Shown piece by piece: positions 37,311 to 56,724 of a stretch of 64,000 bases of DNA. Position 1 is the first letter of the stretch; every line of letters begins with the position of its first letter. Location: contig JAIDUK010000035.1 of the NCBI GenBank assembly GCA_029060215.1, positions 13,235-77,234 of the forward strand, written 5' to 3'. Source of the stretch: Alistipes sp. Lineage in GTDB: Bacteria > Bacteroidota > Bacteroidia > Bacteroidales > Rikenellaceae. The notes beneath the pieces were generated by a model. It saw only the letters and a list, made by a program, of their open reading frames with translations. It was not told the origin of the DNA and made no database searches. A program made the position numbers and the translations under genes.

Positions 37311-38384
37311 ATGAAGGACAAACTCAAGGAACACATTCGGATCGTGGACGTTGCCCGCATGGCCGGAGTTTCGGCCGGAACGGTCGACCGCGTGCTGCAC
37401 AACCGGGGCAAGGTCTCCGAGGAGAATTTGCGTAAAATACGCGAGGTGCTCGCCTCGGTCGACTACCGGCCCAATCTGGTGGCCCGGTCGCTGGCGTCGT
37501 GCCGCGAACGGACGCTGGCCGTCATCATCCCCGCCTACCGCGAGGACGATTACTGGGCCTATGTCGACGCCGGTATTTCGCGCGCCGCCGTGGGGGCCGA
37601 GCGTTTCAACGTGCGCGTGCGCCGGTTCTTCTTCGACCAGTACGACCATGCCACCTTCCTGAAGACGCTCGCCCGCGTACGCGACGAACATTTCGACGGC
37701 GTGCTGCTGGCCACGCTCTTTTCCGATTCGGTGGTCGACTACGCCCGCGAACTCGATGCCGAGGGCACGCCCTATGTCTTCGTCGACTCCAACATACCGG
37801 GGTGCAACCGGCTGGCCTATTTCGGCACTTCGTCGTTCGACGCCGGGGTAGTGGCGGCGCGCCTGCTCTCCGACCGCATCGCGCCGGAGGCCGACATTCT
37901 GGTGGGGAGCATCATCCACCGCGGCGACGGGGGCTCCAACCAGTGCCGCTGCCGCGAGATGGGTTTCCGCGACTACCTCGGCCGCGCGGGCTTCCGGGGC
38001 CGTCTGCTCGGGGCTTCGCTGCGGCTCGACGACGAGGGCTACAACCGCCGCGTGCTCGACGAACTGTTCGAGGAGAATCCCCGCATAGCCGGAGCCGTGA
38101 CCTTCAATTCGACTTGCTACATCCTTGCCAACTACCTCCGCTCGTCGGGCCACGACGGGGTGCGGCTCGTGGGCTACGACGTCATCCGCCGCAACCGCGA
38201 GATGCTCGAAGCCGGGGTGGTCACGGCGCTCGTGGCCCAGCGGCCCGCGGCGCAGGGATTCCACGGTGTGATGGCGCTCTGCGACATGCTGGTCAGCGGG
38301 CGCCGCGGCCCGTCCGACAACCTGATGCCCATCGACATCGTTTTTCGGGAAAACGTCCGTTTTTACAACAGTCATATCATCTAA
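37311..38384 (+). CDS. LacI-family transcriptional regulator (UxuR-like by context)
   Basis: IRIVDVARMAGVSAGTVDRVLHNRG HTH plus periplasmic-binding-type domain. Start at 37311. Confidence 0.9.
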   Translation: MKDKLKEHIRIVDVARMAGVSAGTVDRVLHNRGKVSEENLRKIREVLASVDYRPNLVARSLASCRERTLAVIIPAYREDDYWAYVDAGISRAAVGAERFNVRVRRFFFDQYDHATFLKTLARVRDEHFDGVLLATLFSDSVVDYARELDAEGTPYVFVDSNIPGCNRLAYFGTSSFDAGVVAARLLSDRIAPEADILVGSIIHRGDGGSNQCRCREMGFRDYLGRAGFRGRLLGASLRLDDEGYNRRVLDELFEENPRIAGAVTFNSTCYILANYLRSSGHDGVRLVGYDVIRRNREMLEAGVVTALVAQRPAAQGFHGVMALCDMLVSGRRGPSDNLMPIDIVFRENVRFYNSHII

Positions 38385-38387
38385 GTT

Positions 38388-39200
38388 ATGAAAAATCTTT
38401 TCGATATTTCCGGCAAAGTCGTCGTCGTCACGGGCGGCGCCGGTATCTTGGGCCGCAGCATCTGTCTCTACCTTGCAGAGCAGGGCGCCAAAGTCGCGGT
38501 CCTCGACCGCGACGAGAAGGCTGGCGGCGAGTTGGTCGCAGCCATTGGCAAGGAGGGCGGCGAGGCGCTGTTCCTTGCCACCGACGTGCTCGACCGGGCC
38601 GTATTGGAGCAGAACCGCGCCGATATTCTTGCCGCATACGGCTGCATCGACGTGCTGCTCAACGCTGCGGGCGGCAACATGGGCGGCGCTACGATCGCCC
38701 CCGACAAGTCGTTCCTCGATCTGGAGATCGACGCGTTCCGCAAGGTAGTCGACCTCAATCTGTTCGGCACGGTGCTTCCCACCACCGTTTTCGGCGAGGC
38801 CATGACCGAGCGCAAGAAAGGCGTCATCGTCAACTTCTGCTCCGAATCGGCGTTGCGGCCGCTCACGCGCGTGGTGGGTTACGGCGCCGCCAAGGCCGCC
38901 ATAGCCAATTACACCAAGTATATGGCTGCCGAACTGGCCACGAAGTTCAGCCCCGAGATGCGCGTCAACGCCATCGTGCCCGGGTTCCTGCTGACCAACC
39001 AGAACCGCACACTGCTCACCAACCCCGACGGCAGTTATACCGACCGGGCCAAGACGATCATCGCCCACACGCCTGCCGGACGTTTCGCCGAGCCCGAGGA
39101 GCTGCTGGGCACGATCCACTACCTCATCAGCGACGCTTCGTCGTTCGTGACGGGTGCGCTGGCCGTGGTCGACGGCGGGTTCGACGCGTTCTCGATTTAG
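38388..39200 (+). CDS. uxuB: SDR oxidoreductase, probable D-mannonate (fructuronate) oxidoreductase
   Basis: VTGGAGILG, NAAGGN, YGAAKAA, RVNAIVPGF; adjacent to uxuA. Confidence 0.82.
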   Translation: MKNLFDISGKVVVVTGGAGILGRSICLYLAEQGAKVAVLDRDEKAGGELVAAIGKEGGEALFLATDVLDRAVLEQNRADILAAYGCIDVLLNAAGGNMGGATIAPDKSFLDLEIDAFRKVVDLNLFGTVLPTTVFGEAMTERKKGVIVNFCSESALRPLTRVVGYGAAKAAIANYTKYMAAELATKFSPEMRVNAIVPGFLLTNQNRTLLTNPDGSYTDRAKTIIAHTPAGRFAEPEELLGTIHYLISDASSFVTGALAVVDGGFDAFSI

Positions 39201-39426
39201 TCTTCGGACAGGGATTCCGGCTCGATGCCGCAGCCGCGGCGGAGAACGGACTAAAAGCGCGAGCGGAGGGGCCGGTTTGCTTGCAAACCCGCGAATAGGC
39301 GCCCGGAGCCAGCGTTAGGCTGTTCGGAGCAGGCGAGGCATCTGCCGGAGAGTTTTTGGTACTTTTTGCGGAAAAAAGTACATAGTAAGAATTGATTGTA
39401 GGATAAAAAACGAAATAAGTTTTATC

Positions 39427-40605
39427 ATGTATTATTGCACCCAATCTTGGCGCTGGTACGGTCCCGACGACCCCGTATCGCTGGCCTACATCCGGCAGGC
39501 GGGCGCCACCGACATCGTCCACGCGCTGCACCATGTGCCCAACGGCGAGGTGTGGCCCGTCGACGAAATCCGCCGCCGCCAGCAGCTCATCGCCGAGGCC
39601 GGGCTCCGGTGGTCGGTGGTCGAAAGCGTGCCCGTCCACGAACATATCAAGACCCGTTCGGGCGATTTCCGCCGCTACATCGACAACTACAAGCAGTCGA
39701 TCCGCAACCTTGCCGCCTGCGGCATCCGGACCGTCACCTACAACTTCATGCCCGTGCTCGACTGGACGCGGACCGATCTGGCCTTTGCCGTGGGCGACGG
39801 CTCCCGGGCCCTGCGTTTCGAGCGGGCGGCCTTCATGGCTTTCGACCTCTTCATTCTGAAGCGTCCGGCCGCCGAACAGGAATATTCCGACGCCGAAAAA
39901 GCGGTGGCCGAAGCCCGGTTTGCGCGAATGGACGAGTTTGAAAAAGAACTGCTTACGCGCAACATGATCGCCGGGCTGCCGGGCGCCGAAGAGAGCTTCA
40001 CGCTCGAGGAGTTCCGCCGCGAACTCGACCGCTACAAAGAGATCGACGCCGAAACCTTGCGCAGCAACCTTGTGGCGTTCCTGCGCGAAGTATGTCCCGT
40101 GGCCGACGAAGCGGGGGTCGTGCTGGTCATCCATCCCGACGACCCGCCCTGCTCCATTCTCGGCCTGCCGCGCATCCTCTCCACTGCCGAGGATTTCCGC
40201 AAACTCATCGCCGCCGTGCCCAACCCGTCCAACGGTCTGTGTCTCTGCACCGGGTCGTTCGGCGTGCGCGCCGACAACGATCTGCCCGCCATGATGCGCG
40301 AGTTCGGCGACCGCGTGGGCTTCGTCCATCTGCGCTCCACGCAGCGCGATGCCGAAGGCAATTTCTTCGAAGCCAACCACTTGGAAGGCGACGTGCCCAT
40401 GTTCGAAGTGATGCGGGCGCTGCTCGAAATCCAACAGCGGCAGGGGCGGTCGATCCCCATGCGGCCCGACCACGGCCACCAGATGTGCGACGACCTCGGC
40501 CGCCGGTCCAACCCCGGCTATTCGTGCTACGGGCGCCTGCGGGGGCTCGCCGAACTGCGGGGGCTGGAGCAGGGCATAGCCCGGGCGTTGTTCGCCGACA
40601 GATAA
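39427..40605 (+). CDS. uxuA: Mannonate dehydratase
   Basis: [57 protein letters not shown]. Confidence 0.96.
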
Positions 40606-40640
40606 CCCGACTACACACACCAACCTAAATATCAACCTTT

Positions 40641-43600
40641 ATGAAGAAACTATTGACGCAACTCCATTCGCAGTGGCTGCTCCTTGCGGGGCTCGTGCTG
40701 CTGCTTCCGGGGCTTGCCCGGGCGCAAAGTGCCGGGGGGGGAATTTTGCCTTCTCCGGGGCGGTTTACGCTGACGGCGAGCCTCTGATCGGCGCTTCGAT
40801 CGCCGAGCCCGGTACGCCCAACGGCACCGTTTCGGGGGCTGGCGGCGAGTTCCAGCTCCGCGTGTCGAAGCGCGGCGCCGAGGTGCAGGTGTCGTTCATC
40901 GGCTACCAGACCCGCACCGTGCGGGCGCAGGCCGAGCACCTGCGCATCGATCTGGTGGCCGACGCCCAGCAGATCGACGAAGTGATGGTCGTGGCCTACG
41001 GCACCATGAAGAAACGCGACATCACGGGCGCCGTCACCTCGCTCTCCGAAGAGGCTATCGAACGCAAGATGGCTTCCAACGTCTTCGAAGCCATGCAGGG
41101 TCAGGTGGCCGGTGTCCACATCACCGCCGGTTCGGGCCAGCCCGGCGAGACCGCCACGGTCAACGTGCGCGGTATCTCCACTTTCTCGGCCGAGGGGGTC
41201 AAGCCCCTGTTCGTTGTCGACGGCATCCCCATGGAGGACATCGACGGCATCAACACCTCGGACATCCTTTCGGTCGAGGTGCTCAAGGACGCCGCGTCGG
41301 CCGCCATGTACGGTTCGCGCTCGGCCAACGGTGTCTTCATCATCACCACCAAGGGCGGTTCGGCCAGCGCGCCCCGCGTCGAGGTGAAGTACTACCATTC
41401 GTGGGGCAAGCTCTCCCACAAACTCGCGCAGGCCACCCGCGCCGACCGCCGCAACTACGACCTCAAGCGCCGCGCCTACCTCCTCGAGAACAAGATCGGC
41501 TCGCCCGACGAGAGCTACATGATCATTCAGGACTCGCTCAACGCCTCGTTCAACATCGACAACGACTATCAGGACATTCTGTTCCAGTGGGGGCAGAAGG
41601 ATCAGGTCGACCTGAGCGTTTCGGGCGGTTCCGACAAAATCAAGTACTACGGCTCCACGGGCTACTACAACGAGCGCGGCATCGTGCCCAACACCGGGTT
41701 CCAGCGCCTGACGGCCCGCATCAACGCCGACTACAACGCCAACCGCTGGCTCACGCTCCACAGCCGCGTGTCGCTGGGCTATTCGCAGAAGAACGGCATC
41801 AACGAGGGGCAGCTCATGACCGCCATGCTCTCGCGGCGCCCCTACTTCAACCTCTACTATCCAGACGGGTCGCTCGCGGGCGTCTTCCAAGGGCAGAAAT
41901 CCCCGCTGGCGCAGGTGAAGTACACCACCGACCGCACCGAGTATTACAAGGTCAACTTCTATCAGGGATTCGAGGTCAAGCTGGCCAAGGGGCTCACCTT
42001 CTCCACCAACATCAACGCCAACCTCTACCTCGACAAGCGGCGCCGCGTCTATCCCAGCATGATCACCGACGAGTGGCAGAAGAGCAATACGGGCTACTCC
42101 AACGACAACCTCAACTGGAACTGGCTCAACGAAAACGTCCTGACCTATAAGAATTCGTGGGGCGGCCACAACTTCACCGCCATGGCCGGTTTCAGCGAGC
42201 AGCAGTGGCGTTACGACCGCAACGTCCTGTCGGGCATCAATTCGTCGTCCGACTTCCTGACCACTATGAACGCGTTCTCGGCCAACCTCGTTCTCTCCGA
42301 GACCGGGGCTTGGCAGCAGAACCACGCCATGGCGTCGTTCTTCGCCCGCGTCAACTACGATTACAAGTCGCGCTATCTGGTGCAGGCCACCCTTCGCCGC
42401 GACGGGTCGTCGCGCTTCTCCAAGGAGAACCGCTGGGGCAACTTCCCCTCGGTGTCGGCCGCATGGCGCATCTCCGACGAGCCGTTCATGAAGTTCTCGC
42501 GCCGCGTGCTCGACGACGCCAAGGTGCGTGTGAGCTGGGGCATCACGGGCAACGAGCAGATCGGCAACTACGACTACCTCTATTCCTACGCTACGGGCGA
42601 CATCTACGACGGCATCGGCGGCGTCTATCCCGCACGGCTCGCCGTCGACAACCTGCGCTGGGAGGAGACCCGCCAGACCGACGTGGGTCTCGACCTGAGT
42701 TTCTTCGGGCAGCGGCTCACCCTCACGGCCGACTACTACGACAAGTATACCGACGGTCTGCTGGCCAACCTCGAACTGCCCAAGGAGTCGGGTTTCGACC
42801 GCATGCGCACCAACATCGGCGAGGTCCGCAACCGCGGTTTCGAGCTCACCGTGGCCGGCGATCTGGTGCGGACCCGCGACTTCCGCTGGAACGCGTCGTT
42901 CAACATCTCGCGCAACTGGAACAGCATCGAGCGGCTCTCCACCGGCGAGCCCTACCTTGAGGGCGACCTGTGGTGGATGCAGGAGGGCGGTTCGATCGGC
43001 GACTTCTACGGCTACCGCCAGCTGGGCATCTTCCGCTACGACGAGTCCAACGCCTTCACGCCCGACACGTGGCAGCAGCTCACGCCCGTCTTCGAGGGCG
43101 GCGAGTTCCGCGGCTACACGCTCAACGGCGCGGCCTACACCGGCGACGTGGTGCAGAAGAAGCTGCCCAACGGCAAGCCTTTCCGCGGCGGCGACGTCAA
43201 CTGGGACGAAGCGCCCGGCGCCCGCGACGGGGTCATCGACGAGAACGACCGCATGGTCCTCGGCAACGCCCTGCCCACCTACACCGGAGGTCTCTCCACG
43301 ACGTTCACCTACAAGAACCTGTCGCTCTTCGTCTCGTTCTACTATTCGTTCGGCGCCAAGATCTACAACGACGCCGAGCACCAGCGCAACATGTTCAAGT
43401 ATTCGTCCACGACCCCTTCGCCCCACGTCATCAACAACATCTGGGTGCATCAGGGCGACGAGGCGCTCTACCCGCGGCCCTACAACGACGAGTACAACAA
43501 CGCGCGCTACGCCAATTCGTTCTACCTCGAAAAGGGCGACTTCATCCGCTTGCAGAACGTGCGTCTGAGCTACGACCTGCCCGAGCGGTGGCTCAAGTCC

Positions 43601-43774
43601 GTGCGCATCAAGTCGCTGCAAGTCTATTTCTTCGCCAACAACCCCCTCACATGGACCGCCTACAGCGGTTACGATCCCGAATTCTCGTCGTCCAACCCGC
43701 TGCAAATCGGCAAGGACACCTACCGCTATCCCCACAAGCGCGAATTCGGCGTGGGTCTGAACGTCAAATTTTAA
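40641..43774 (+). CDS. SusC-like TonB-dependent receptor, frameshifted at G8 (40734-40741) as sequenced
   Basis: ATG 40641 frame encodes a signal peptide and stops at 40785-40787; the main frame carries VAYG, LFVVDG, EVLKDAASAAMYGSRSANGVFIITTK and ends in NVKF. Confidence 0.88.
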
Positions 43775-43787
43775 CCGATTTACCGTC

Positions 43788-45233
43788 ATGAAAAAACATA
43801 TCGTCATCCTCGCCGCCGTTTGTCTCTCGGCTTCGCTTGCCGGGTGCGAGTCGTTCCTCGACGAGCAGCCCGTCAGCGAGGTGCCCGCGGGCAGCATGTG
43901 GCAGACTTCGCGCGACGCCAAGGCCGGGGTCAGCCAGATCTACGGTTTCTTCCGCACCGCCATGCGCGAGAATTACTTCTATTGGGGCGAGTTCCGTTCC
44001 GACAACCTTTCGCCCGGCGCTTCGTCGGCCGCCGACCAGCAGCGCGTCATCGACAACCAGCTCACCACCGACCACCGGTGCACCCGCTGGACCGACCTCT
44101 ACAAGGTCATCAATCAGGCCAACCTCTGCATCCGCCACCTGCCCGGCATCGACACGCCGTCGGTGGCCGAGCGCGACGACCTGCTCGGACAGGCCTACGG
44201 CATGCGCGCCTTGGCCTATCTCTACGCCGTGCGGGTGTGGGGCGACGTGCCCCTGTTCGTCGAGCCCAACGAGGAGTACAGCGACGCCATCTACCGCGAG
44301 CGCACCGACCGCGAATACATCCTGCGCGAGGTCATCCTCGAAGACCTCCGCAAGGCCGAGGGGCTCATCGACCGCACCAAGAACAAGGAGCGCAAACGCA
44401 TCTCCATCTACGGCGTGTGGGCCGTCATGGCCGACGCCTACATGTGGCTGGGCGAGTACAGCCTTGCCGACCAGACCATCGAGAAGATGAAGAACGACGC
44501 GTCGTTCATGGCTTTCGAGCCCGGCATCGACACTTGGAAGAAGATGTTCACCGAGGAGCTCAACGGCAAGGCCAGCGACAACACCCCCGAGAACGACGAT
44601 TATTCGACCAAGGAGTTCATCTTCGTCATCCATTTCAACATGGACGAGGTCGGCACCAACGGTTTCAGCTACATGTACCAGTGGTTCACCGGGTCGGGCA
44701 ACCGCGCCGGGGTCGTCTCCGAAACCCTGCGCAACAAGTTCGACCGCGCCGCCGACCTGCGCTTCCCGCTCGTGACCAAGGAGTATCAGGCCGGTTGGGA
44801 GATGCGCAAATACATCTCGGGCGACATTTCGTCCACGCTCAACAAGACTTGTCAGGTGGCCTATCCCGTCTACCGCTATTCCGACATGCTGCTTTTGCAG
44901 GCCGAGGCGCTGGCCCGGCTGAGCAAGTGGGAGGAGGCGCTCGATCTGGTCAAGCTCGTCCGCACGCGCGCCGGGCTCGACACTCCGCAGGCGTCGGACT
45001 TCGCCACCGAGGACGAGCTGGTCGACTTCATCCTCGACGAGCGGCAGCGCGAACTCCTCGGCGAGGGGCGCCGGTGGTTCGACCTCGTGCGCACCGGACG
45101 CTGGAAGAGCGTCATGGGGCCCATCAACGGGTGCAGCGAGGACGGCAACGAGTTCTTCCCCATCCACTATTCGCACCTCGACCAGAACAAGGCGCTCAGA
45201 CAGAACGCCTACTATGCCCAGAATCAGGAATAA
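43788..45233 (+). CDS. SusD/RagB-family lipoprotein
   Basis: Lipobox LAGC, RALAYLYAVRVWGDVP, YRYSDMLLLQAEAL, ERQRELLGEGRRWFDLVR. Confidence 0.93.
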   Translation: MKKHIVILAAVCLSASLAGCESFLDEQPVSEVPAGSMWQTSRDAKAGVSQIYGFFRTAMRENYFYWGEFRSDNLSPGASSAADQQRVIDNQLTTDHRCTRWTDLYKVINQANLCIRHLPGIDTPSVAERDDLLGQAYGMRALAYLYAVRVWGDVPLFVEPNEEYSDAIYRERTDREYILREVILEDLRKAEGLIDRTKNKERKRISIYGVWAVMADAYMWLGEYSLADQTIEKMKNDASFMAFEPGIDTWKKMFTEELNGKASDNTPENDDYSTKEFIFVIHFNMDEVGTNGFSYMYQWFTGSGNRAGVVSETLRNKFDRAADLRFPLVTKEYQAGWEMRKYISGDISSTLNKTCQVAYPVYRYSDMLLLQAEALARLSKWEEALDLVKLVRTRAGLDTPQASDFATEDELVDFILDERQRELLGEGRRWFDLVRTGRWKSVMGPINGCSEDGNEFFPIHYSHLDQNKALRQNAYYAQNQE

Positions 45234-45255: not shown

Positions 45256-45858
45256 ATGTTCAAGCATATCGTTCTTAAGTTGTCGCTGCTGGCGCTCGTC
45301 GTTTCGGCCGGGTGCAGCGACATGAAGTTGCAGACCGACGCCGACTACGACGCTTCGGTGCTCGATCCCCGCGTCGACATGACGGCGTGGGAGTGGATCG
45401 AGACGCGCCCCGACCTCTTTTCCAAGTTCATGGCGGCCGTCGAGATGGCCGGCATGAAGGAGTATTACACCCAGACCGGGCATCCCTACACGTTCCTCGT
45501 GCTGACCGACACCGCCATGAACAATTTCGTCGGGTCGCAGAACGTCTCTTCGCTCGAGGAGTGTTCGGCCGAGAGCGTGCGCAACCTCTTGCTCTACCAC
45601 ATCGTCGACGGTGTCTACAGCAGTTACGGCGATCTGCCCGTCGAGCCCATCTTCGTGCTCACGCTCCGGCGCGGCGAGCAGGGGTTGATGACCATGCTCA
45701 CGCGCAAGAACCCGTGGATGGCCGACGCCGGAAAGATCGTGGTCAACGACACGGGCAGCAACGGTTCCTCGCCCATGCGGCTGGCCGTCAGCTCCAACAT
45801 CATACCCACCAACGGCGTCGTGCACGTCTTCGAGAACTATTGTTATTACAAGAAGTAG
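45256..45858 (+). CDS. Fasciclin (FAS1) domain lipoprotein
   Basis: Lipobox SAGC, YTFLVLTD, LLYHIV, IPTNGVVHV. Confidence 0.82.
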   Translation: MFKHIVLKLSLLALVVSAGCSDMKLQTDADYDASVLDPRVDMTAWEWIETRPDLFSKFMAAVEMAGMKEYYTQTGHPYTFLVLTDTAMNNFVGSQNVSSLEECSAESVRNLLLYHIVDGVYSSYGDLPVEPIFVLTLRRGEQGLMTMLTRKNPWMADAGKIVVNDTGSNGSSPMRLAVSSNIIPTNGVVHVFENYCYYKK

Positions 45859-47462: not shown

Positions 47463-47507
47463 CGGGATTCTCCGGGTCCGCAGGGACCCGGGGATTCCCC
47501 GTTTTTT
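47463..47507 (+). terminator. Internal PUL stem-loop/terminator
   Basis: Long stem around a GCAG loop followed by TTTTTT, between the lipoprotein and enzyme genes. Confidence 0.65.
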
Positions 47508-47523
47508 CCCGATTTCGTTTCGT

Positions 47524-49329
47524 ATGAATCCTTTCCGCCTGCTTTTGTTGCCCGCGCTTTGCGGCGTTTTGTCCCTCTCGGCCCAGAACGGCAAGAAAGT
47601 CTACGCCGACTACCACGGCGTGCGCTATACGCGCGCCCACGACGGCAAGCTGGGCCGTTGGGAGATGCACGCCGATACGCACAAGTCGGCCACGGGCCGC
47701 CAGCGGCTTTGCTACAACGCCGATTTTTGCGATTCGCTCGGGCGCCGCGACCTCGCTGCCGTGGCTTCTCCCGCCATCGGCATGCAGTCCGACCTCGACC
47801 CCCACGCCATCGAGTACCGGATCCTCGCGGCCAAGACCGCCGGGATCGACGGCTTCTTCGTCGAGTGGGGTTTCATGGGCCACGAGAACGACCTTTTGCT
47901 CCGCGCCATGCAGCCCGTCGCCGCCAAGTACGGTTTCGAGATCGGCGTCAATTGGTGCGACGGCTGGCTCTACTACGATTGGATCACGCGCCTGCACCCG
48001 CATATCGTCACCCGCGAGCAGAAGACCGACCACTACGCCCGGTGTTACCAGTATCTGGTCGACAGCGTCCTTTCCGGTCCCACCGCGCCCCGCGTCGGCG
48101 GGCGGCCCGTCTTCTACCTCTTCGGGCCCGGGGCTTCGCCCGAGGAGTATGCCCGCGCCGTGGCGCAGGTCCGTTTCCCCGAGGGGGAGCCGCGTCCCGT
48201 CGTCCTGCGGCGGTGGGCCGAGTGGGGCAGGCTCGTCGGCGACCGTTACGAGCCCGTGCGGTGGAGCCCCGACATCGAGGCTTGGCGCAGGCTCGGGGCG
48301 GTTCCCGCTCCGTGGCTGCCCGCCCGCGTCCGGCCCCGCGACGAAGCCCATGCCGAGTGGGACCATTGGGCTTCGCCCGACGACTGCGTCGAGTTCATGA
48401 AGCCGTTCCGCGATTCGGTGTGGCTCGCTTCCGACCCCGCCTACAGCGTCAAGGCCGGTTTCGTCGCTCCCGGTATGGACAACCGCGGGTGCGCAGGGTG
48501 GGGGGCTCAGCATTTCTACCTCATCCCCCGCGACGGGGGCCGCACCTACGAGCGGCTGTGGCGGTTTTGTCTGGATTCGCGCGACAGTCTCGACATGGTT
48601 TTCATCGCTTCGTGGAGCGATTATACCGAGGGCCACGAGATCGAGCCCACGCTCGAAAACGGCGACCGCGAGTTGCGCACCACGCTGCGCTGCGCTGCGG
48701 CGTTCAAGGGCGTCGTTCCCGATTCTTCCGGTCTGGAGTTGCCCGCGCGGCTTTTTGCAGCCCGGAAGCGCGGGGTTTTGCTCGCCGCCGCCCGGCGCAA
48801 GACCGCCGGAGCCGATGCCTTGCTCGACCGCGCCGCTCTGAGCATCGCCCGCGCCGATTACGCCGATGCCCGGCAGTCGCTTGCCGAGGCCGAAGCTGCT
48901 CTTGGGGCATTGGAGAAGGGTTTGAAAGCCCGTTCCCTCGACCTCGCCGAATCAGACTTGCGTTTCAGCCGCGAGCCTTTGCACGGGGTTCGGAGCGCCG
49001 ATCCCGAGTTGAAGGTTTACTTCCCCGCGTGGGCGCTCGGGCCGTTGATGACCGCCCGCACCCATTCCGGTTGCCTCGAATTCGAGTTCTTCGACGGTGC
49101 TCCCGACGAGCGTTTCGCTTTCGTCTATTCGCGTACCGACCGCGCCCCCAAGGAGTTGTTCGCCACCGTGGCCAAGTTCCCCACCGGCGGTTCCGGCCGT
49201 TGGAAGCGCGTGCGCGTCGAGCTGGCTCCCGGCAACGTGCTCTACGACATGGGTTCCAACTTCACCTTCATGTTCAAGGGGCCCGTTCGGGTGCGCAACG
49301 TTTCGTTCCACTATACTTTGTTCCGATGA
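47524..49329 (+). CDS. Secreted GH71/GH99-like glycoside hydrolase
   Basis: Signal peptide; GIDGFFVEW, PVFYLF, PGMDNRG and IASWSDYTEGHEIEP resemble GH99-like barrel motifs. Confidence 0.6.
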   Translation: MNPFRLLLLPALCGVLSLSAQNGKKVYADYHGVRYTRAHDGKLGRWEMHADTHKSATGRQRLCYNADFCDSLGRRDLAAVASPAIGMQSDLDPHAIEYRILAAKTAGIDGFFVEWGFMGHENDLLLRAMQPVAAKYGFEIGVNWCDGWLYYDWITRLHPHIVTREQKTDHYARCYQYLVDSVLSGPTAPRVGGRPVFYLFGPGASPEEYARAVAQVRFPEGEPRPVVLRRWAEWGRLVGDRYEPVRWSPDIEAWRRLGAVPAPWLPARVRPRDEAHAEWDHWASPDDCVEFMKPFRDSVWLASDPAYSVKAGFVAPGMDNRGCAGWGAQHFYLIPRDGGRTYERLWRFCLDSRDSLDMVFIASWSDYTEGHEIEPTLENGDRELRTTLRCAAAFKGVVPDSSGLELPARLFAARKRGVLLAAARRKTAGADALLDRAALSIARADYADARQSLAEAEAALGALEKGLKARSLDLAESDLRFSREPLHGVRSADPELKVYFPAWALGPLMTARTHSGCLEFEFFDGAPDERFAFVYSRTDRAPKELFATVAKFPTGGSGRWKRVRVELAPGNVLYDMGSNFTFMFKGPVRVRNVSFHYTLFR

Positions 49330-51680
49330 CCTGCAAAGCATTCCTTTTCGCCGCGGCTTTTCTCGCCTGCGCTTGCGGCGGCCCCCGCCGCGACGGCAAT
49401 ACGTTCCGGTTCGACGACCGGGGTATGGCCTGCGCCGTCGAATTCCGGTCCGGGAGGGCCGTGCGCATCCTCGTGCGGCCCGACAGCGCCCGGCTCGTCA
49501 CCCGCAGGCTCGTCACCGTCCCTGCTGACGCTCCCGTCGACGTGCGGTGCCGTTCCGACAGGGAGGGTTATCTGTTCCGTACTTCGCAGTTGGAGGTCCG
49601 CTACGACCGTGCGTCGGGGCGTTTCTCGTTCTTCGATCCCGCTTCCGAGCAGCCCTTGCTCGAAGAGGACGCGCGCTCGCTCGTGCCCGACACCGTCGGC
49701 GGCGAGGCTTGTTATGCCGTCGCGCAGTCGTTCCGCACTTCGCCCGACGAATCGCTCTTCGGGCTCGGGCAGTACCGCACCGGGCGCGTCGACCATAAGC
49801 GCGATACGGTGCTGCTCTTGCAGGCCAACAAGGAGATCGCCAACCCCTGCCTCGTCTCGTCGCGCGGTTACGGCTTGTTGTGGGACAATTATTCGGCCTC
49901 CGAGTTCCGCGACGGCGGCGACCGCTTCGAGTTCGTCTCCGAGGTGGGCGATGCCGTCGACTACTGGTTCGTGCGCGGCGACGACCCGGCCGATTGCGTG
50001 CGCGGCTACCGCGAGCTCACCGGGGCCGCTTCGCTGCCGCCCAAATGGGTCTTCGGCTTCTGGCAGTCGCGCGAGCGCTACAAGTCGTTCGACGAGCTCG
50101 AAAGCGTCGTGCAGGAGTTCCGCAGGCGGCGCATTCCCCTCGACGTCATCGTGCAGGACTGGGAGTATTGGGGCGACAGGCCGCAGTGGAATGCCCTCGG
50201 GTGGGATTCCGTGCGTTTTCCCGACCCCGCCGCCCGCATCGACCGCCTGCACAGGCATTACGGCGTCCGGCTCATGCTTTCGGTCTGGCCCGGGTTCGGG
50301 CCGCAGACGGCCGTTTACCGCGAGTTGGAGCAGGCCGGGGCGTTGTTCGACGAGCCTACGTGGGCCGGTTACAAGGTTTTCGACGCCTTCGATTCCGTGG
50401 GCCGCGACATCGTTTGGCGCCACTTCAGCCGCGGGCTCCTCTCTACCGGGGTCGACGGTTGGTGGATGGACGCCACCGAGCCCTCGTTCCGCGAGGGATT
50501 CACCCAGCGGCGGCAGGAGGCGCGTTCCAAGGCGGCCGGGCAGACCGCTTGGGGGCCTTTCCACCGCTACCTCAACGCCTATTCGCTCGTCTGGATGGCC
50601 GACCTCTACGGCCGCCTGCGCGCCGCGCAGCCCGATCGCAGACCTTTCCTCTTCACCCGGTCGGCTTTCGCCGGGCAGCAGCGCTTCGGCACCGCCGTCT
50701 GGTCGGGCGACGTCGTCGCTTCGTGGGACAGTTTCCGGCGGCAGCTCGCCGCCGGGGCGGGGCTCTCAGCTTCGGGTTTTCCGTGGTGGACTTTCGATGC
50801 GGGCGGGTTCTTCGTCAGCACCAACGGCGGACCCTATCCCCGCGGTCTGGCCGACCCCGACTACCTCGACCTCTACGCCCGCTGGTTCCAGTTCGCGGCG
50901 TTCCTGCCCATCTTCCGCGCCCACGGCACCGACGTGCCGCGCGAGCCGTGGCAGTTCGGCGGCGAGCAGAGCCTCTTCTACCGCAACCAGCTCAAGTACA
51001 TCGACCTGCGTTACCGCCTGATGCCTTTCATCTACTCCGCCGCCCGCCGCGTCGCCGCCGAGGACGCGTCCATGTTCGAGCCCCTCGGCATGGCTTTTCC
51101 CGCCGACCGTGCCGTCGCCGCGGCCGACGATTCCTACCTCTTCGGCGGGGCGCTGCTCGTGCGGCCCGTCTTCCGCCCCATGCCTGCCGGAGCCCGGCAG
51201 CAGCAGGTCGCCACCTTGTTGCCGCGCCACGAGGGGGCGTGGTGGTACGATTTCTTCACGGGTCGGGCTCACCGCGGCGGCGCATGCGTCGCCAAGGCTT
51301 GCGACCTCACCGAGTTGCCCCTCTATGTGCGCGGCGGCTCGATCGTGCCTCTCGGCGAGCCTAAGCAGTCCGTCATGGAGGGCCCCGACGAGCGGCTCGA
51401 AATCCGCATCTATGCCGGGGCCGACGCCCGTTTCGACCTCTACGACGATTCCGGCGACGGCTTCGGTTATCTCGACGGCCGCCATGCTCTTGTCCGTTTC
51501 GAGTGGGACGATGCCGCGTCCGTGCTGCGCATAGCCCGCCGCGAGGGGGCCTACGAGGGGATGGCTTGCGTGCAGGAGCTGACCCTGCGGCTGTTCCGCC
51601 CCGGCTGCGCTCCCGTCGTGCGGCAGGTCCGTTATTCCGGCGAGCCTTTGTCCGTTGCTTTTAACGATCCTATTTTATGA
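49326..51680 (+). CDS. GH31 alpha-glycosidase (alpha-xylosidase/glucosidase-like)
   Basis: GFWQSRERY, IVQDW, WWMDATEP, WSGDV, RWFQF...FRAHG. Start MTCKAF at 49326. Confidence 0.9.
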   Translation: MTCKAFLFAAAFLACACGGPRRDGNTFRFDDRGMACAVEFRSGRAVRILVRPDSARLVTRRLVTVPADAPVDVRCRSDREGYLFRTSQLEVRYDRASGRFSFFDPASEQPLLEEDARSLVPDTVGGEACYAVAQSFRTSPDESLFGLGQYRTGRVDHKRDTVLLLQANKEIANPCLVSSRGYGLLWDNYSASEFRDGGDRFEFVSEVGDAVDYWFVRGDDPADCVRGYRELTGAASLPPKWVFGFWQSRERYKSFDELESVVQEFRRRRIPLDVIVQDWEYWGDRPQWNALGWDSVRFPDPAARIDRLHRHYGVRLMLSVWPGFGPQTAVYRELEQAGALFDEPTWAGYKVFDAFDSVGRDIVWRHFSRGLLSTGVDGWWMDATEPSFREGFTQRRQEARSKAAGQTAWGPFHRYLNAYSLVWMADLYGRLRAAQPDRRPFLFTRSAFAGQQRFGTAVWSGDVVASWDSFRRQLAAGAGLSASGFPWWTFDAGGFFVSTNGGPYPRGLADPDYLDLYARWFQFAAFLPIFRAHGTDVPREPWQFGGEQSLFYRNQLKYIDLRYRLMPFIYSAARRVAAEDASMFEPLGMAFPADRAVAAADDSYLFGGALLVRPVFRPMPAGARQQQVATLLPRHEGAWWYDFFTGRAHRGGACVAKACDLTELPLYVRGGSIVPLGEPKQSVMEGPDERLEIRIYAGADARFDLYDDSGDGFGYLDGRHALVRFEWDDAASVLRIARREGAYEGMACVQELTLRLFRPGCAPVVRQVRYSGEPLSVAFNDPIL

Positions 51681-54307
51681 TACGATTCCTTTCCGTTCTG
51701 TTCTTCGCACTGATGCCGCTGGCGCCGCTCGCCGCCCGCGAGCGCTATACCATCAACGAGGCTTGGCGCTTCTCGAAAGGTTCGCCTTACGGGGCGTTCC
51801 TGCCCGGGGCCGACGATGCCGCGTGGGAGACGGTCGACATTCCCCACACGTGGAACGCCGCCGATGCCGACGACGACGAGCCCGGCTTCTATCGCGGCCC
51901 GGGGTGGTACCGCAAGCGTTTCTTCCTCTCCGAAGCCGCCGCGGCCGGGCAGGTCTACCTCTGTTTCGAGGGGGTCGACCAGTTCGCCTGCGTCTGGGTC
52001 AACGGCCATTTCGCCGGGAAGCATGCGGGCGGGTACACGCGTTTCGTCGTCGACATCACGCCGTTCGTCGCCCCGGGCGAGAACCTCGTGGCCGTCGAGG
52101 CCGACAACCGCCACGACCCCGACATGCCGCCCCTCTCGGCCGACTTCACCTTCTTCGGGGGCATCTACCGCGATGTCGGCCTTTTGCTCACCGATAAGAT
52201 CCACATCGCCCCCACCGACATGGCTTCTTCGGGCGTCTACCTCTCCACGCCCCGCGTCACGGCGCAGTCGGCCGAGGTCGACATCCGCACGCTGGTGGCC
52301 AACCGCTCCGGCCGCGAGGCCCGGGTGCGCGTCGAGCACCGCATCTTCGCCCCCGACGGTTCCGAGGCCGCCCGGGCGGAGCAGGAGTTTGTCGTTGCGC
52401 CCGGCCAGACCGCCGAGCCCCTTTGCCGGGGCATCCGCATTGCCGATCCGCAGCTGTGGGACCTCGACGCTCCCAACCTCTACCGTGTTCTCACGCGCAT
52501 AATCGACGCCGACGGCACCGAACTCGACTGCGTATCCGACCCGCTGGGGCTCCGGTGGTTCGAGTTCGATCCCGACAAGGGGTTCTCGCTCAACGGACGT
52601 CCGCGCAAACTGGTCGGCACCTGCCGCCATCAGGACTACGAAAGGCGCGGCTGGGCCCTCGCCGACGCCATGCACGAACGCGACATCCGCCTTTTGAAGC
52701 AGATGGGCGGCAATTTCCTGCGCGTTTCCCACTATCCGCAGGACCCCGTCGTGCTCGAAATGTGCGACAGGCTGGGCATTCTCGCGTCGGTCGAGATTCC
52801 CGTTGTCAACGCCGTCACCGAGAGCGACGCCTTCCTCGACAACTGCGTCCGCATGGTCCGCGAGATGATCCGGCAGGATTTCAACCACCCGTCGGTGATC
52901 ATTTGGGCCTACATGAACGAGGTCTTGCTTCGGCCGCCCTACAAGGATCCGGAGCGGCTGGCGACCTATTACAAGGCCGTCGAGCGCGTCGCCCGGGCCT
53001 TGGAGGATGCCGTGCGGGCCGAGGACCCCTCGCGCTATACCATGATGGCCTACCACAACGCGCCCGAAGCCTATGCCGCTGCCGGGCTCACCTGCATCCC
53101 CATGATTCAGGGCTGGAACCTCTATCAGGGGTGGTACGAAAAGGACATCACCCGGTTCGAGAAGATCCTCGACCGGCTCCACGCCGAGTATCCCGACAAG
53201 GTGCTGATGGTCACCGAGTACGGGGCCGACGTCGATCAGCGGGTCCACTCGTTCGCCCCCGAGCAGTTCGATTTTTCGCAGGAGTACGGGCTCGTCTATC
53301 ATCGGCATTACCTGCGCGAGATCATGCGGCGTCCGTTCGTCGCCGGGTCGTCGGTCTGGAACCTCAACAGCTTCTATTCCGAGCCGCGCGCCGACGCCGT
53401 GCCCCATGTCAACCTCAAGGGGCTCACCGGGCTCGACCGCGAACCCAAAGACACCTACCTTTTCTATAAGGCCCGGCTGGCCGGGCCGCAGCTGCTGATC
53501 GGCCATCGGCGCTGGGAGAACCGCGGCGGGGCCGACGACGGCCGGGGCCGCTCGACGCAGCCCGTTCCGGTCTTCTCCGACCGGCCGGCCGTCACGTTGT
53601 TCCACAACGGGCGCAAGCTCGCCACCAAGAAGCCCGAGGGCGGGGTGGCTATGTTCGACGTGCCGTTCGTCGACGGCGAAAACAGGCTCGTCGCCACGGC
53701 CGGGTCGCACACCGACGCCCTGACCGTCGATTTCCGCCTGATGAAGGCTTCGCCGCGCGAGTTCTCCGAGCTCTGCGTCATGTTGGGCTCGCCCCGCTAC
53801 TTCGACGACCGCACGGCCGGTACAGCGTGGATTCCCGAGCAGCCCTACAGCCCCGGCAGCTGGGGCTACGTCGGCGGACGTCCTCTGCGCCGCGAGGGTA
53901 CGGGGTGGCTCGGGTCGGCGGCCGACATCAAGGGCACCGACTGCAACGCCCTCTTCCAGACCCAGCGCGTCGGCATCGAGCAGTTCCGCGCCGACGTGCC
54001 CGACGGTACTTATTCCGTCTACTTCCATTGGGCCGAACTCGATGCCGAGGGCGAGCGCGAAGCCTTGGCCTACAACCTCGGGGCCGACGACGCCGGGACC
54101 TGTTACCGGGGGCGCCGTTTCGACGTGGCGATCAACGGTTCCAAACTGTTGGAGAATTTCTCCATCGCCGACGAAGCCGGGTTCGCCCGCGCCTTGGTCC
54201 GCAAGGCCGAGGTCGTGGTCCACGACGGGCAGGGCATCCGCATCGACTTTCTTCCCGTCGAGGGCGAACCCGTGCTGAACGCCATCCGCATCTACCGCAA
54301 CCATTGA
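51677..54307 (+). CDS. GH2 enzyme, probable beta-glucuronidase, with C-terminal malectin-like module
   Basis: RVSHYPQ, WAYMNE (acid/base), VTEYGAD (nucleophile), HVNLKGL (N-x-K-G motif associated with GUS enzymes), LFQTQR...HWAE...FDVAING. Confidence 0.85.
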   Translation: MIRFLSVLFFALMPLAPLAARERYTINEAWRFSKGSPYGAFLPGADDAAWETVDIPHTWNAADADDDEPGFYRGPGWYRKRFFLSEAAAAGQVYLCFEGVDQFACVWVNGHFAGKHAGGYTRFVVDITPFVAPGENLVAVEADNRHDPDMPPLSADFTFFGGIYRDVGLLLTDKIHIAPTDMASSGVYLSTPRVTAQSAEVDIRTLVANRSGREARVRVEHRIFAPDGSEAARAEQEFVVAPGQTAEPLCRGIRIADPQLWDLDAPNLYRVLTRIIDADGTELDCVSDPLGLRWFEFDPDKGFSLNGRPRKLVGTCRHQDYERRGWALADAMHERDIRLLKQMGGNFLRVSHYPQDPVVLEMCDRLGILASVEIPVVNAVTESDAFLDNCVRMVREMIRQDFNHPSVIIWAYMNEVLLRPPYKDPERLATYYKAVERVARALEDAVRAEDPSRYTMMAYHNAPEAYAAAGLTCIPMIQGWNLYQGWYEKDITRFEKILDRLHAEYPDKVLMVTEYGADVDQRVHSFAPEQFDFSQEYGLVYHRHYLREIMRRPFVAGSSVWNLNSFYSEPRADAVPHVNLKGLTGLDREPKDTYLFYKARLAGPQLLIGHRRWENRGGADDGRGRSTQPVPVFSDRPAVTLFHNGRKLATKKPEGGVAMFDVPFVDGENRLVATAGSHTDALTVDFRLMKASPREFSELCVMLGSPRYFDDRTAGTAWIPEQPYSPGSWGYVGGRPLRREGTGWLGSAADIKGTDCNALFQTQRVGIEQFRADVPDGTYSVYFHWAELDAEGEREALAYNLGADDAGTCYRGRRFDVAINGSKLLENFSIADEAGFARALVRKAEVVVHDGQGIRIDFLPVEGEPVLNAIRIYRNH

Positions 54308-54311
54308 CGCC

Positions 54312-55118
54312 ATGCGACGTTTCCTCTTCTTCGTTTTCGCTTGGTGCCTGCCCTCGGGGCTCGCCGCCCAGCCGCAGCGGTTGCAGATCGTGCTCTGCAT
54401 CGGGCAGTCCAACATGGCCGGGCGCGGGGCGTTCGACGCTGCTGCGCGCGATACCTTGCCCGGCGTCTTTCTGTTCAATGCCGACGGGTGTTTCGAACCT
54501 GCCGTCGAGCCTTTGAACCGTCATTCGTCGGTTCGCAAGGAGCTCTCCATGCAGCGCGTGGGGCCTGCGGGCAGTTTCGCCGCCGCCTTCGCCGCCGCGA
54601 CCGGGCGTCCCGTAGGGCTCGTCGTCAACGCGCGCGGCGGCAGTTCCATCGGCGAGTGGACAGGCTCCGACGGCCGCCTGCTCGATTCGGCGCTGGTCCG
54701 ACTGCGGGCTGCGCAGGAGTGGGGCGACGTGGTCGCCGTGTTGTGGCATCAGGGCGAAGCCGATGCCCGCCATCCGGAGCGCTACGAAGCCCGGTTGCGG
54801 GAGCTCGTCGGGCGCTTGCGTGCCGAAGTCGGTGACCCGCAGCTGCCGTTCGTCTTCGGCGAGATCGCCCGGTGGAACTGGACCGGGCGGCCCGAGGGTA
54901 CGGAGCCATTCAACGCCATGCTCCGCGCATTGCGGCTGCCTTATGCGGCCTGCGTTTCGTCCGAGGGCCTCGCACCCATGCGGGACGAGACCGATCCCCA
55001 TTTCTCGGCCGCCGGCCAGCGCGAACTGGGAGCCCGCTATGCTGCCGCGCTATTGCGGCTTCTGTCCGAAAACCAACAAAAAAACCAACGACAATATGAA
55101 CCTGTTAAAACGTTTTAG
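54312..55118 (+). CDS. SGNH acetyl esterase (SASA/CE6-like)
   Basis: CIGQSNMAGRG, ARGGSSI..W, WHQGEAD, D..HF. Confidence 0.85.
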   Translation: MRRFLFFVFAWCLPSGLAAQPQRLQIVLCIGQSNMAGRGAFDAAARDTLPGVFLFNADGCFEPAVEPLNRHSSVRKELSMQRVGPAGSFAAAFAAATGRPVGLVVNARGGSSIGEWTGSDGRLLDSALVRLRAAQEWGDVVAVLWHQGEADARHPERYEARLRELVGRLRAEVGDPQLPFVFGEIARWNWTGRPEGTEPFNAMLRALRLPYAACVSSEGLAPMRDETDPHFSAAGQRELGARYAAALLRLLSENQQKNQRQYEPVKTF

Positions 55119-55122
55119 CACC

Positions 55123-56724
55123 ATGAAGAAACCGATCCTTCCCATGCTTTGCGCGCTTTCCTGCGCGGCCCTTTTCGCCTGTGCCGACGACCCAGCCCCG
55201 GGCGCCGAAGAACGACCCGGACCCGGCGATCTGCCCGAATACACCTTCTCGCAGGTCGAATTCTGCCGACTGGTCAACGGCCAGTTCCGCGGCTGGACCG
55301 TTGCGGAGGCCATCGCCGGGGGCGAGATCGCCGACGCCACGCAGACCCGCACCGTGGAGGGCATGAACCGCTTCCGGCCTGTCGATTTCCATGTGGAAAC
55401 CCCGTGGGGCGGGCGGCTCGACGGCGGCGAACCTGTATCGGTGCGCGGCGCCGAGGGCTTTTTCCGGGTGGGCAAGGTCGACGGCCGCTGGTACTTCCTC
55501 GACCCCGACGGCGGGGCGGCGATTCTCCGCGGCACGCAACATGTCCATCCCTACGACATCGACGACGTACCCACGGCCGAACACGAGGCGGGCTACAAAG
55601 CCCGTTTTGCGTCCGACGCCGCATGGAGCGCCGAGACGGGCAACCTGCTTGCGGCCAACGGCTTCAACTACATCTCCTACGGAGCCAAGCGCATCGCCCG
55701 CTTCCCCGACGACATCCGCACCAACCTGCTTGCACCCGAACAAACGGTGCCCGGCTGCCTTACGGGCCGCCGCAAACTGGCCTACGGCGAGAACCTCTAC
55801 CTGCTGCGCACCTTCATGTGGGACATGACCACGAAGTTGGGCTATGACAAGAGTTTCGACACGGGCAAGTACAACCGGCTGGTGCTTGCCTTCGAACCCA
55901 AGTTCGAGGAATACATCGAGCAGCTGGCGCAGGAGAAATGCGCCCTGTTCCGCGACGACGAACATTTTGTCGGCTACTATCTGGACAACGAACTGCCTTT
56001 CGTGGCCTATGAGAACTCCAGCTCCACCCTCGGCATCGAACTCCGGCACTTCCTTTCGCTGCCCGACGACTACAGCGGAGCCCGCGACTTTGCGCAAGCC
56101 TTCATGACCCGCGAGGGGATCGCTTCGGAAGCCGCCATCACGGAAGTCCACCGCGAAAAATTCCGCGCCGAGGTGGCCGACCACTATTTCCGTGTCACGA
56201 CCGAAGCGGTCCGCAAAGCCGACCCCAACCACCTGATTCTGGGCGCGCGCCTGCACGACTGGAGCAAATATGCGCAGGGGATCGTGGAAGCCTGCGCCCG
56301 CTATTGCGACGTGGTGTCGCTCAACTACTATTCGCGCTGGCAACCCGAACCCGCCTACATGGACAACCTTGCGGCGTGGTGCGGCGAACGACCGTTCATC
56401 GTCTCCGAATTCTATGTCAAGGCGGCCGACGCCTCGTACAAGGGACGCCCCTATGTCAACACCGACGGCGGCGGCTGGCTGGTCCGCACCCAACGCAACC
56501 GCGGCGAATTCTACCAGAATTTCTGCCTGCGTCTGCTGGAGACGCGCCGCTGCGCGGGGTGGATGCACTTCGAATATGCCGACGGCTACAGCAGCGGCAA
56601 GGGCTCCAACAAAGGAGTGGTGTCGGTGGAATATCAACCCTATACCCAATATCTTGCGATGATGAAATCGCTGCACGACAACCTCTATGCGCTGGCATCC
56701 TACTACGATGCCGAAGAACGCTGA
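55123..56724 (+). CDS. Lipoprotein clan GH-A hydrolase, GH50/agarase-like
   Basis: Lipobox LFAC-ADD; GRWYFLDPDG, GYYLDNEL, DPNHLILGAR, FIVSEFY, GWMHFEY. Alternative start at 55096. Confidence 0.65.
   Translation: MKKPILPMLCALSCAALFACADDPAPGAEERPGPGDLPEYTFSQVEFCRLVNGQFRGWTVAEAIAGGEIADATQTRTVEGMNRFRPVDFHVETPWGGRLDGGEPVSVRGAEGFFRVGKVDGRWYFLDPDGGAAILRGTQHVHPYDIDDVPTAEHEAGYKARFASDAAWSAETGNLLAANGFNYISYGAKRIARFPDDIRTNLLAPEQTVPGCLTGRRKLAYGENLYLLRTFMWDMTTKLGYDKSFDTGKYNRLVLAFEPKFEEYIEQLAQEKCALFRDDEHFVGYYLDNELPFVAYENSSSTLGIELRHFLSLPDDYSGARDFAQAFMTREGIASEAAITEVHREKFRAEVADHYFRVTTEAVRKADPNHLILGARLHDWSKYAQGIVEACARYCDVVSLNYYSRWQPEPAYMDNLAAWCGERPFIVSEFYVKAADASYKGRPYVNTDGGGWLVRTQRNRGEFYQNFCLRLLETRRCAGWMHFEYADGYSSGKGSNKGVVSVEYQPYTQYLAMMKSLHDNLYALASYYDAEER

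Follow-up and report, generated by a model that had tools for sequence, protein, structure and literature searches.

A probable glucuronate-harvesting polysaccharide utilization locus of Alistipes sp. and its conserved GH99-like/GH2 core

The 64,000-nucleotide stretch of Alistipes sp. DNA analysed here (the window; positions 13,235 to 77,234 of contig JAIDUK010000035.1, assembly GCA_029060215.1, numbered below from its first letter) contains a run of twelve co-directional genes on the + strand, spanning 37311-56724, with the make-up of a polysaccharide utilization locus (PUL). Genes were called from a listing of open reading frames (ORFs) in combination with filtering on third-position GC content, and their products were compared with Pfam and NCBIfam by profile searches. 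The GC content of the window is about 62%, and the genome assembly comprises 2.07 Mb in 46 contigs at 98% completeness. The features of the locus, including those of the glycoside hydrolase (GH) families, are the following:

37243-37258, no strand: perfect 16-bp palindrome GTGTGTGCGCACACAC, candidate operator, 53 bp upstream of the LacI ATG
37311-38384, +: LacI-family regulator with a helix-turn-helix and a periplasmic-binding-protein-like sensor (PF00356, PF13407)
38388-39200, +: D-mannonate oxidoreductase of the short-chain dehydrogenase/reductase (SDR) type, UxuB function (NF006132, 353.9 bits, cut-off 281)
39427-40605, +: D-mannonate dehydratase UxuA (TIGR00695, 562.7 bits, cut-off 199.6; PF03786, 431 bits)
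40641-43774 (body frame from 40673), +: SusC-like TonB-dependent transporter (Plug, CarboxypepD_reg, barrel)
43788-45233, +: SusD-like lipoprotein (PF07980, PF14322)
45256-45858, +: fasciclin-domain lipoprotein with lipobox SAGC (PF02469)
45888-47450, +: 520-aa lipoprotein (LAAC-SDDE) matching no Pfam or NCBIfam family
47489-47511, +: hairpin CGGGGATTCCCCG with a T-run after it, resembling a terminator and separating the transport half from the enzyme half (weak)
47524-49329, +: GH99-like ("GH71/99-like") protein (PF16317, 23.6 bits, and PF14307, 24.5 bits, both below cut-off)
49326-51680, +: GH31 lipoprotein of the alpha-xylosidase clade (PF01055, 304 bits)
51677-54307, +: GH2, predicted beta-glucuronidase (GH2 N, middle and C domains, DUF4982, Malectin)
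54312-55118, +: SASA-family SGNH carbohydrate O-acetylesterase (PF03629, 173 bits)
55096-56724, +: GH50-like lipoprotein (no Pfam match; 5T3B, BpGH50, E = 9e-48)

The susC-like gene adjoins the susD-like gene (40641-43774 and 43788-45233), and the GH99-like, GH31, GH2, SASA and GH50-like genes lie with this pair in the same direction, together with that of the LacI-family regulator. The transporter gene itself is not intact, as a G8 tract shifts the SusC signal peptide out of frame in the assembly. The enzyme half is tightly packed, since 4-bp ATGA overlaps flank GH31 on the side of the GH99-like gene and on that of GH2. Scans of the locus for sigma-70 promoters and terminators gave sites that were not enriched compared to shuffled sequence. 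In the NCBIfam search no family was found for the GH99-like, fasciclin, 520-aa lipoprotein, SASA and GH50-like proteins, and no equivalog for LacI. The genes for UxuA, LacI, GH31, the GH99-like enzyme, SASA and the GH50-like protein each occur once in the genome, and SusC genes about 14 times. Upstream, the run is bordered by aroQ, pyruvate kinase and a Wzx-like flippase gene, and downstream (56848-60240, - strand) by the genes for butyrate kinase (buk), phosphotransbutyrylase (ptb) and acetate kinase (ackA). With housekeeping genes on both flanks, the description of the PUL as self-contained in an initial annotation of this DNA is therefore correct, and every gene which that annotation had listed in one co-directional run was recovered in the same interval.

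Sixteen further loci, from six genera or more, have this gene order as well, and thus the arrangement is not a product of chance. The full order SusC-SusD-fasciclin-lipoprotein-GH99-like-GH31-GH2-SASA-GH50-like is found in eight Alistipes loci and in one from another Rikenellaceae genus (L017). Over the whole locus, the proteins of Alistipes muris DSM 112343 are 77-95% identical to those of the window. More distant carriers have altered versions. The loci of Coprobacter fastidiosus and Mariniphaga anaerophila are without the GH50-like gene and encode a second GH99-like paralogue, in which a C-terminal sorting domain of the type IX secretion system is matched weakly and below threshold, and in Niabella drilacis the order is lipoprotein-SusCD-GH2-GH99-like-GH31. 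Two low-GC Rikenellaceae loci (L015 and L016) have the GH99-like protein and GH2 as their sole enzymes, and in a metagenome-assembled Prevotella genome (L024) these two are the only recognisable ones, accompanied by a DUF6528 protein. The gene for the latter (L024:9024-9977, 473 bits) is located between those of the lipoprotein and the GH99-like enzyme. Orthologues of the 520-aa lipoprotein are present in every copy of the PUL, Niabella included, the fasciclin lipoprotein adjoins SusD in 15 of the 17 other loci, and GH2 adjoins the GH99-like gene in 16 of these 17, across three orders and several regulatory systems. These comparisons leave SusCD, the two lipoproteins, the GH99-like enzyme and GH2 as the invariant core; GH31, SASA and the GH50-like protein are considered accessory because comparative genomics shows loci that keep only the GH99-like enzyme and GH2. 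SusD is 61-92% identical across orthologous loci, those from other orders included. Between Alistipes and Coprobacter, Prevotella or Mariniphaga (L007, L022, L024) SusC and SusD share 58-69% identity, compared to 48-56% for the enzymes. This identity of the transport pair argues for one shared ligand, and its excess over that of the enzymes suggests either a strong constraint by the ligand or horizontal transfer of the locus. The carriers come from gut, soil and marine settings, Mariniphaga being from tidal-flat sediment.

Among the core enzymes, GH2 offers a clue to the substrate. It matches solved beta-glucuronidases (GUS) from end to end (8DHL with 644 bits, 6D50 with 639, 5UJ6 with 634 and 6ED1 with 567), which are the GUS L2 of T. 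forsythia (8DHL) and the GUS enzymes of B. uniformis (6D50, 5UJ6) and B. dorei (6ED1) (PMC10162664, PMC6351562). The alignment runs over the full length including the C-terminal carbohydrate-binding-type domain, and covers the catalytic glutamate pair, E415 (in MNE) and E514 (in TEYG), as well as the N-x-K motif, N579-L-K581-G, which is aligned with INNKG of 8DHL. In E. coli GUS, the corresponding N566 and K568 contact the carboxylate of glucuronic acid (GlcA) (PMC6351562). All four residues (E415, E514, N579, K581) are kept in 16/16 GH2 orthologues. The best NCBIfam match, "beta-glucuronidase LacZ4", falls below the cut-off of that model. The protein, in which the initial annotation had already pointed out an NxKG motif, is thus placed by its sequence in the GUS clade and is predicted to be a beta-glucuronidase. 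The GH2s of the Coprobacter and Prevotella loci are no nearer to the solved GUS enzymes in the Protein Data Bank (PDB) than that of the window. A test of whether the solved structures derive from this type of PUL was accordingly negative: the three GH2s are about equally distant from them and none is identical to a solved enzyme.

The predicted release of GlcA is matched by genes for its catabolism. The genome's only uxuA and its only SDR of the D-mannonate oxidoreductase type are both inside the locus, so that glucuronate catabolism is physically tied to the PUL, and LacI-uxuB-uxuA is fused to it in three Rikenellaceae lineages. A gene for UxaC, which the initial annotation had noted as lacking in the window, is indeed absent there; it occurs as a single genomic copy on another contig (C21, 664 bits), and therefore its absence from the window leaves the pathway complete. 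All members of the isomerase pathway that were looked for (UxaC, UxuB, UxuA and the 2-keto-3-deoxy-6-phosphogluconate aldolase) were found, the last being only probable, as the Eda-like aldolase, from another part of the genome, reaches 143.8 bits where the cut-off is 156. Galacturonate was considered as the target and set aside, the linked genes being uxuA and uxuB and not uxaA and uxaB. The locus shares with canonical Bacteroides PULs the SusC/SusD pair, the surface lipoproteins, the periplasmic glycosidases and the delivery of a monosaccharide into a standard route, here that of UxaC, UxuB and UxuA. It differs from them in the fusion of catabolic genes to the PUL, in the poly-G tract of its SusC, and in its regulator, which is of the LacI type with a dedicated palindrome and not a hybrid two-component system (HTCS), SusR or an extracytoplasmic function (ECF) sigma factor.

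One could suppose that GH2 scavenges small-molecule or host glucuronides, such as bile, drug or steroid conjugates or the ends of glycosaminoglycans, and that its neighbours form an unrelated PUL for a neutral glycan. The GUS relatives from B. uniformis, B. dorei and T. forsythia have been studied on small glucuronides and chondroitin oligosaccharides, which agrees with such a role. The constant position of GH2 beside the GH99-like gene across three orders, the ATGA overlaps on either side of GH31 and the malectin-like C-terminal module, which suggests a glycan substrate, speak against it and make this supposition highly improbable.

The second enzyme of the core is divergent and the most unusual component of the locus. 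Its gene product has a type-I signal peptide, as read by eye, followed by a catalytic domain of the (beta/alpha)8 type, which a helical linker joins to a jelly-roll at the C-terminus, and its AlphaFold2 model has a pLDDT of 91.9. In Foldseek searches this model has the (beta/alpha)8 fold of GH99, the best matches being BxGH99, BtGH99 and MANEA (E about 3e-13, target TM 0.66-0.72, 14-16% identity), with 5NGW and GH71 next after the GH99 enzymes. Its relatives are labelled "glycoside hydrolase family 71/99-like" by NCBI, and its PF16317 score remains below the gathering threshold (23.6 compared to 33 bits). An alignment of 19 sequences revealed an invariant block, SWSD366-Y-T-E369-GHEIEP, in place of the GH99 motif SFNEWHEGTQIEP. 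When compared by hhalign with a bona fide GH99 from a Bacteroidales genome (89% probability), this block is aligned with SFNEWHEGTQIEP, and D366/E369 can thus be equated with the catalytic glutamate pair of GH99 (E333/E336 of BxGH99, inside N-E-W-H-E-G). The E-x-x-E pair of GH99 is accordingly altered to D-x-x-E, the first glutamate being replaced by aspartate in all 19 family members and in all 16 loci. Compared to BtGH99, BxGH99 and MANEA, the fold, the signature segment, the second catalytic glutamate and G-x-x-I-E-P are shared, whereas the window protein has about 230 extra C-terminal residues (the helical linker and the jelly-roll) and is partnered by GUS and GH31 and not by mannan enzymes of GH76, GH92 and GH125.

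The fold raises the possibility of a target of the glucurono-mannan type (of fungal, plant, yeast or diatom origin), i.e., an alpha-mannan with beta-GlcA or an alternation of GlcA and mannose, close to what the initial annotation had suggested. The GH99-like protein would then be an endo-alpha-mannosidase releasing GlcA-capped manno-oligosaccharides, which GH2 would uncap. The nearest folds are indeed all GH99 endo-alpha-1,2-mannosidases or mannanases, the catalytic acidic pair is kept as D/E, the minimal loci consist of the GH99-like and GUS enzymes, and the presence in soil, marine-sediment and gut taxa would suit a widespread fungal or plant polymer. Yet no version of the locus encodes an exo-alpha-mannosidase (GH92, GH38 or GH125). 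Moreover, the xylose of glucuronoxylomannan is beta-linked, which leaves a GH31 alpha-xylosidase without a role in the known polymers of that kind. An alternating beta-GlcA-(1,2)-alpha-Man chain has the O2 of mannose occupied and so unavailable for the 2-OH-assisted mechanism of GH99, and the identity to GH99 is only about 15%. We consider a glucurono-mannan somewhat unlikely on balance.

The accessory GH31 introduces a second neutral sugar. Its best PDB relatives are all alpha-xylosidases (7KMP with 478 bits, 5JOU and 2XVG with 441 and MeXyl31 with 260), and the first match to another activity has 195 bits. The catalytic aspartates D382 (WWMDATEP) and D462 (WSGD) are aligned with those of 7KMP and 5JOU. 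Over residues 41-777 the likeness to xyloglucan-type enzymes (CjXyl31A, 2XVG; BoGH31A, 5JOU; the Xanthomonas enzyme, 7KMP) includes the catalytic domain, the N- and C-terminal beta-domains, WWMDAxEP and WSGD. In contrast to these enzymes, the PA14 insert is absent (the alignment jumps from 240 to 398 of 7KMP), giving a protein of 784 aa compared to 955-1020 aa, and the locus has no xyloglucanase of GH5 or GH9 and no GH95. In CjXyl31A this insert reportedly extends the aglycone-binding site. A xyloglucan PUL was rejected for the want of an endo-xyloglucanase and of PA14 in GH31, and an agar or porphyran PUL because the locus encodes neither an agarase nor a sulfatase.

An alpha-xylosidase next to a beta-glucuronidase also brings to mind a repeat of the matriglycan type ([-3Xyl-alpha1,3-GlcA-beta1-]n) or a microbial analogue, on which the GH99/GH71-like protein would act as a depolymerase resembling an endo-alpha-xylosidase, and GH31 and GH2 as alternating exo-enzymes. 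This very pair of activities is used experimentally to digest matriglycan (PMC10518772). The GH99-like enzyme and GH2 would suffice if the endo-enzyme yields GlcA-Xyl disaccharides, XylA is encoded elsewhere in the genome, and many of the carriers are animal-gut bacteria. Such a substrate is nonetheless quite unlikely: the locus is also found in Mariniphaga from tidal-flat sediment and in other Bacteroidota from outside the gut, several loci have no GH31, the acetylesterase and the GH50-like protein would have no role on it, an alpha-xyloside is unable to use the neighbouring-group mechanism of GH99, and the literature that was searched shows no link between matriglycan and Bacteroidota.

The remaining proteins fit the processing of a decorated glycan. 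The SASA esterase scores above the PF03629 threshold and carries the serine of its GQSN motif at position 33 (S33). In A. muris, only about 350 bp separate GH2 from the GH50-like gene (L002:16779-17129) versus an 800-bp SASA gene in other species, and the esterase appears truncated there, with a residual match that covers the region of the catalytic serine. The GH50-like protein carries LFAC-ADD, with an acidic, export-signal-like sequence after the lipidated cysteine. Its glutamates E299 (DNE) and E438 (SEF) are both kept in 10 orthologues. With BpGH50 (Bacple_01683, 5T3B) of the B. plebeius porphyran PUL, whose specificity has not been demonstrated (bioRxiv 10.1101/2023.03.30.534863), it has in common the catalytic half (E = 9e-48) and both clan GH-A glutamates, whereas its N-terminal half cannot be aligned and its surroundings are devoid of agarase, porphyranase and sulfatase genes. 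The matches to GH50 agarases have E-values of 1e-16 to 1e-19 (Aga50D, 4BQ2, 1e-19). The AlphaFold2 model of the 520-aa lipoprotein (pLDDT 81.8) is all-beta, with tandem Ig-like beta-sandwiches and a C-terminal domain, and its Foldseek matches are restricted to generic multi-Ig/MG-domain (macroglobulin) proteins. As judged from this model, it is a probable surface glycan-binding protein, for which tandem Ig-like sandwiches are typical, and the fasciclin lipoprotein probably is one as well.

The frame of SusC deserves separate attention. Read from its true ATG at 40641, the gene goes out of frame at a run of eight G (G8, 40734-40741) and meets a stop after 48 codons (40641-40787). A poly-G tract is located at the same Gly-Gly-Gly codons in 8/9 Alistipes loci. 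It consists of G9, in frame, in six Alistipes orthologues and of G11, out of frame, in A. muris, and it is interrupted in L006. Close relatives therefore have tracts of different length, which set the gene in or out of frame (G8 off, G11 off, G9 on), as expected of phase variation, and from these sequences the G8 allele is most likely the off state of a SusC that is phase-variable by slipped-strand variation. Alternatively, the locus of this strain could be a decaying, non-functional remnant, with a frameshift that is a fixed mutation or an assembly error and not a switch. The early end of the frame from ATG 40641 would fit this, as would the situation in A. muris, where the tract is out of frame and most of the SASA gene is apparently lost. 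Decay is unlikely, however, given that the eleven other genes are intact with their catalytic residues kept, and that the lengths of 8, 9 and 11 at the same codons, in single-G units, have the signature of slipped-strand events, unlike random decay.

A further level of control is indicated upstream of LacI. The palindrome GTGTGTGCGCACACAC closely precedes a TAnnTTTG-like -7 element, TATGTTTG, and occurs a single time in the 2.07-Mb genome when up to two mismatches are allowed. The palindrome itself, or a variant with at most two mismatches, is found upstream of LacI or SusC in L009, L010, L011, L012, L015, L016 and the Coprobacter loci L022/L023 (positions L009:3437, L011:19628, L012:3484, L015:16427, L016:16429 and L022:653). 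As about 5e-3 occurrences are expected by chance per 20-kb locus, it represents a conserved cis-element, and most simply it would be the LacI operator. The LacI gene is syntenic in L002, L004, L005, L011, L015 and L016; the Mariniphaga and Prevotella loci have ECF/anti-sigma regulation instead. In a larger Alistipes genome (L009:1-3600), LacI-uxuBA is replaced by a divergent GH3 gene and the end of an HTCS-like (Reg_prop) gene, with the palindrome in the shared intergenic region. In C. fastidiosus, SusC is preceded by about 950 bp (L022:1-957) in which no ORF reaches 60 aa and a palindrome variant occurs; a long leader or another regulatory region may be located here.

Based on these elements, we propose, at a probability of roughly 65%, that the locus represents a conserved, uncharacterised type of Bacteroidota PUL that harvests GlcA from a heteroglycan composed of beta-GlcA and an alpha-linked neutral sugar. 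The steps of the model are deduced from sequence. The glycan would be bound at the surface by SusD and the fasciclin and tandem-Ig lipoproteins, and the GH50-like lipoprotein, whose start, C-A-D-D, is acidic in the manner of a surface-export signal of Bacteroidetes, would make the first extracellular cuts; in taxa without it, a secreted GH99-like paralogue may do so. Fragments would be imported via SusC. In the periplasm, the SASA esterase would strip O-acetyl groups, the GH99-like enzyme would cut internal alpha-linkages, the PA14-less GH31 would trim alpha-xylosyl (or closely related) caps and GH2 would free beta-GlcA. GlcA would then be isomerised in the cytoplasm by UxaC, reduced by the SDR and dehydrated by UxuA to enter the 2-keto-3-deoxygluconate pathway. 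The LacI-family repressor probably binds the palindrome and responds to a GlcA-derived metabolite. The GH99-like enzyme and the beta-glucuronidase would form the indispensable pair, with GH31, SASA and the GH50-like protein handling decorations or variants of the glycan.

The target proposed in the initial annotation agrees in part with this model. Its beta-GlcA is supported by the GUS-clade GH2 with its N-x-K motif and by the sole uxuA and uxuB-like SDR of the genome in the locus. Its alpha-linked neutral sugar is plausible, GH31 being nearest to alpha-xylosidases and the GH99-like protein having the fold of endo-alpha-mannosidases, and O-acetylation is plausible given the SASA esterase. The more specific suggestion of a capsule or exopolysaccharide, or of a fungal glucuronomannan, is one of several possibilities. 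That annotation could not match the combination to a characterised PUL, and neither was one with this gene set found in the literature searched, PULDB and dbCAN being outside the comparison, so that "uncharacterised" is provisional.

Several points weigh against the proposed harvest of GlcA. SusC is frameshifted both here and in A. muris, so that the locus may be decaying or silent, and none of the genes of the locus encodes a uronate transporter. The GH99-like protein combines 14-16% identity to GH99 with a score below the Pfam threshold and aspartate for the first glutamate, so its bond specificity and endo-action are guesses. GH31 remains below the alpha-xylosidase equivalog NF007940 of NCBIfam (217.8 compared to 606 bits), and its putative specificity is drawn from best matches at about 45% identity. 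The binding of LacI to the palindrome is deduced from position and conservation, and subcellular locations were read by eye from the N-termini.

The type of system is known in itself: it is a PUL with standard logic, and thousands of these are still unassigned. What is new is the conserved pairing of a divergent GH99-clan D-x-x-E enzyme with a GUS-clade GH2, and further the fusion with uxuAB under LacI and the palindrome, and the poly-G tract in SusC. Tentatively, the 600-aa "GH71/99-like" proteins might even constitute a new GH family or subfamily with a D-x-x-E pair and a bond specificity outside GH99 and GH71, which, paired with a dedicated beta-glucuronidase, could make up a core of two enzymes able to depolymerise completely a uronic glycan built of disaccharide repeats (matriglycan-like Xyl-GlcA, or Man-GlcA). 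The use of such a glycan would be unrecognised in gut and soil Bacteroidota, and access to it in Alistipes would be toggled by the poly-G tract of SusC.

The clean conservation of this core, a GH99-like protein with an altered catalytic pair next to a GUS-clade GH2, in gut, soil and marine Bacteroidota makes it a lead for enzyme discovery and a practicable way to find a glycosidase specificity that is new. It could equally lead to the polysaccharide that naturally serves the "polysaccharide-type" microbial beta-glucuronidases as substrate, enzymes on which most work has otherwise concerned the reactivation of drugs and hormones. Cultured carriers are available with Alistipes muris DSM 112343 and Coprobacter fastidiosus NSB1, and the candidate operator and the poly-G switch are direct handles on regulation. 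If the target were a host-type Xyl-GlcA or GlcA-capped glycan, the locus would have a bearing on the foraging of host glycans.

The distribution of the locus is limited. The GH99-like gene is present in 12/201 Rikenellaceae genomes, that of the window included, and in 0/400 other randomly drawn Bacteroidota genomes, a count made with a first-look filter of uncertain sensitivity at identities of about 45%; from these samples, the locus is rare and patchy. The GH99-like family itself is small, as only 72 clusters match at E <= 1e-30 among 1.84 billion representatives at 50% identity. An orphan GH99-like gene that is 65% identical occurs outside any PUL at L014:7599-9533, among housekeeping genes for LpxB, a metallo-beta-lactamase-fold protein and a tRNA methyltransferase.

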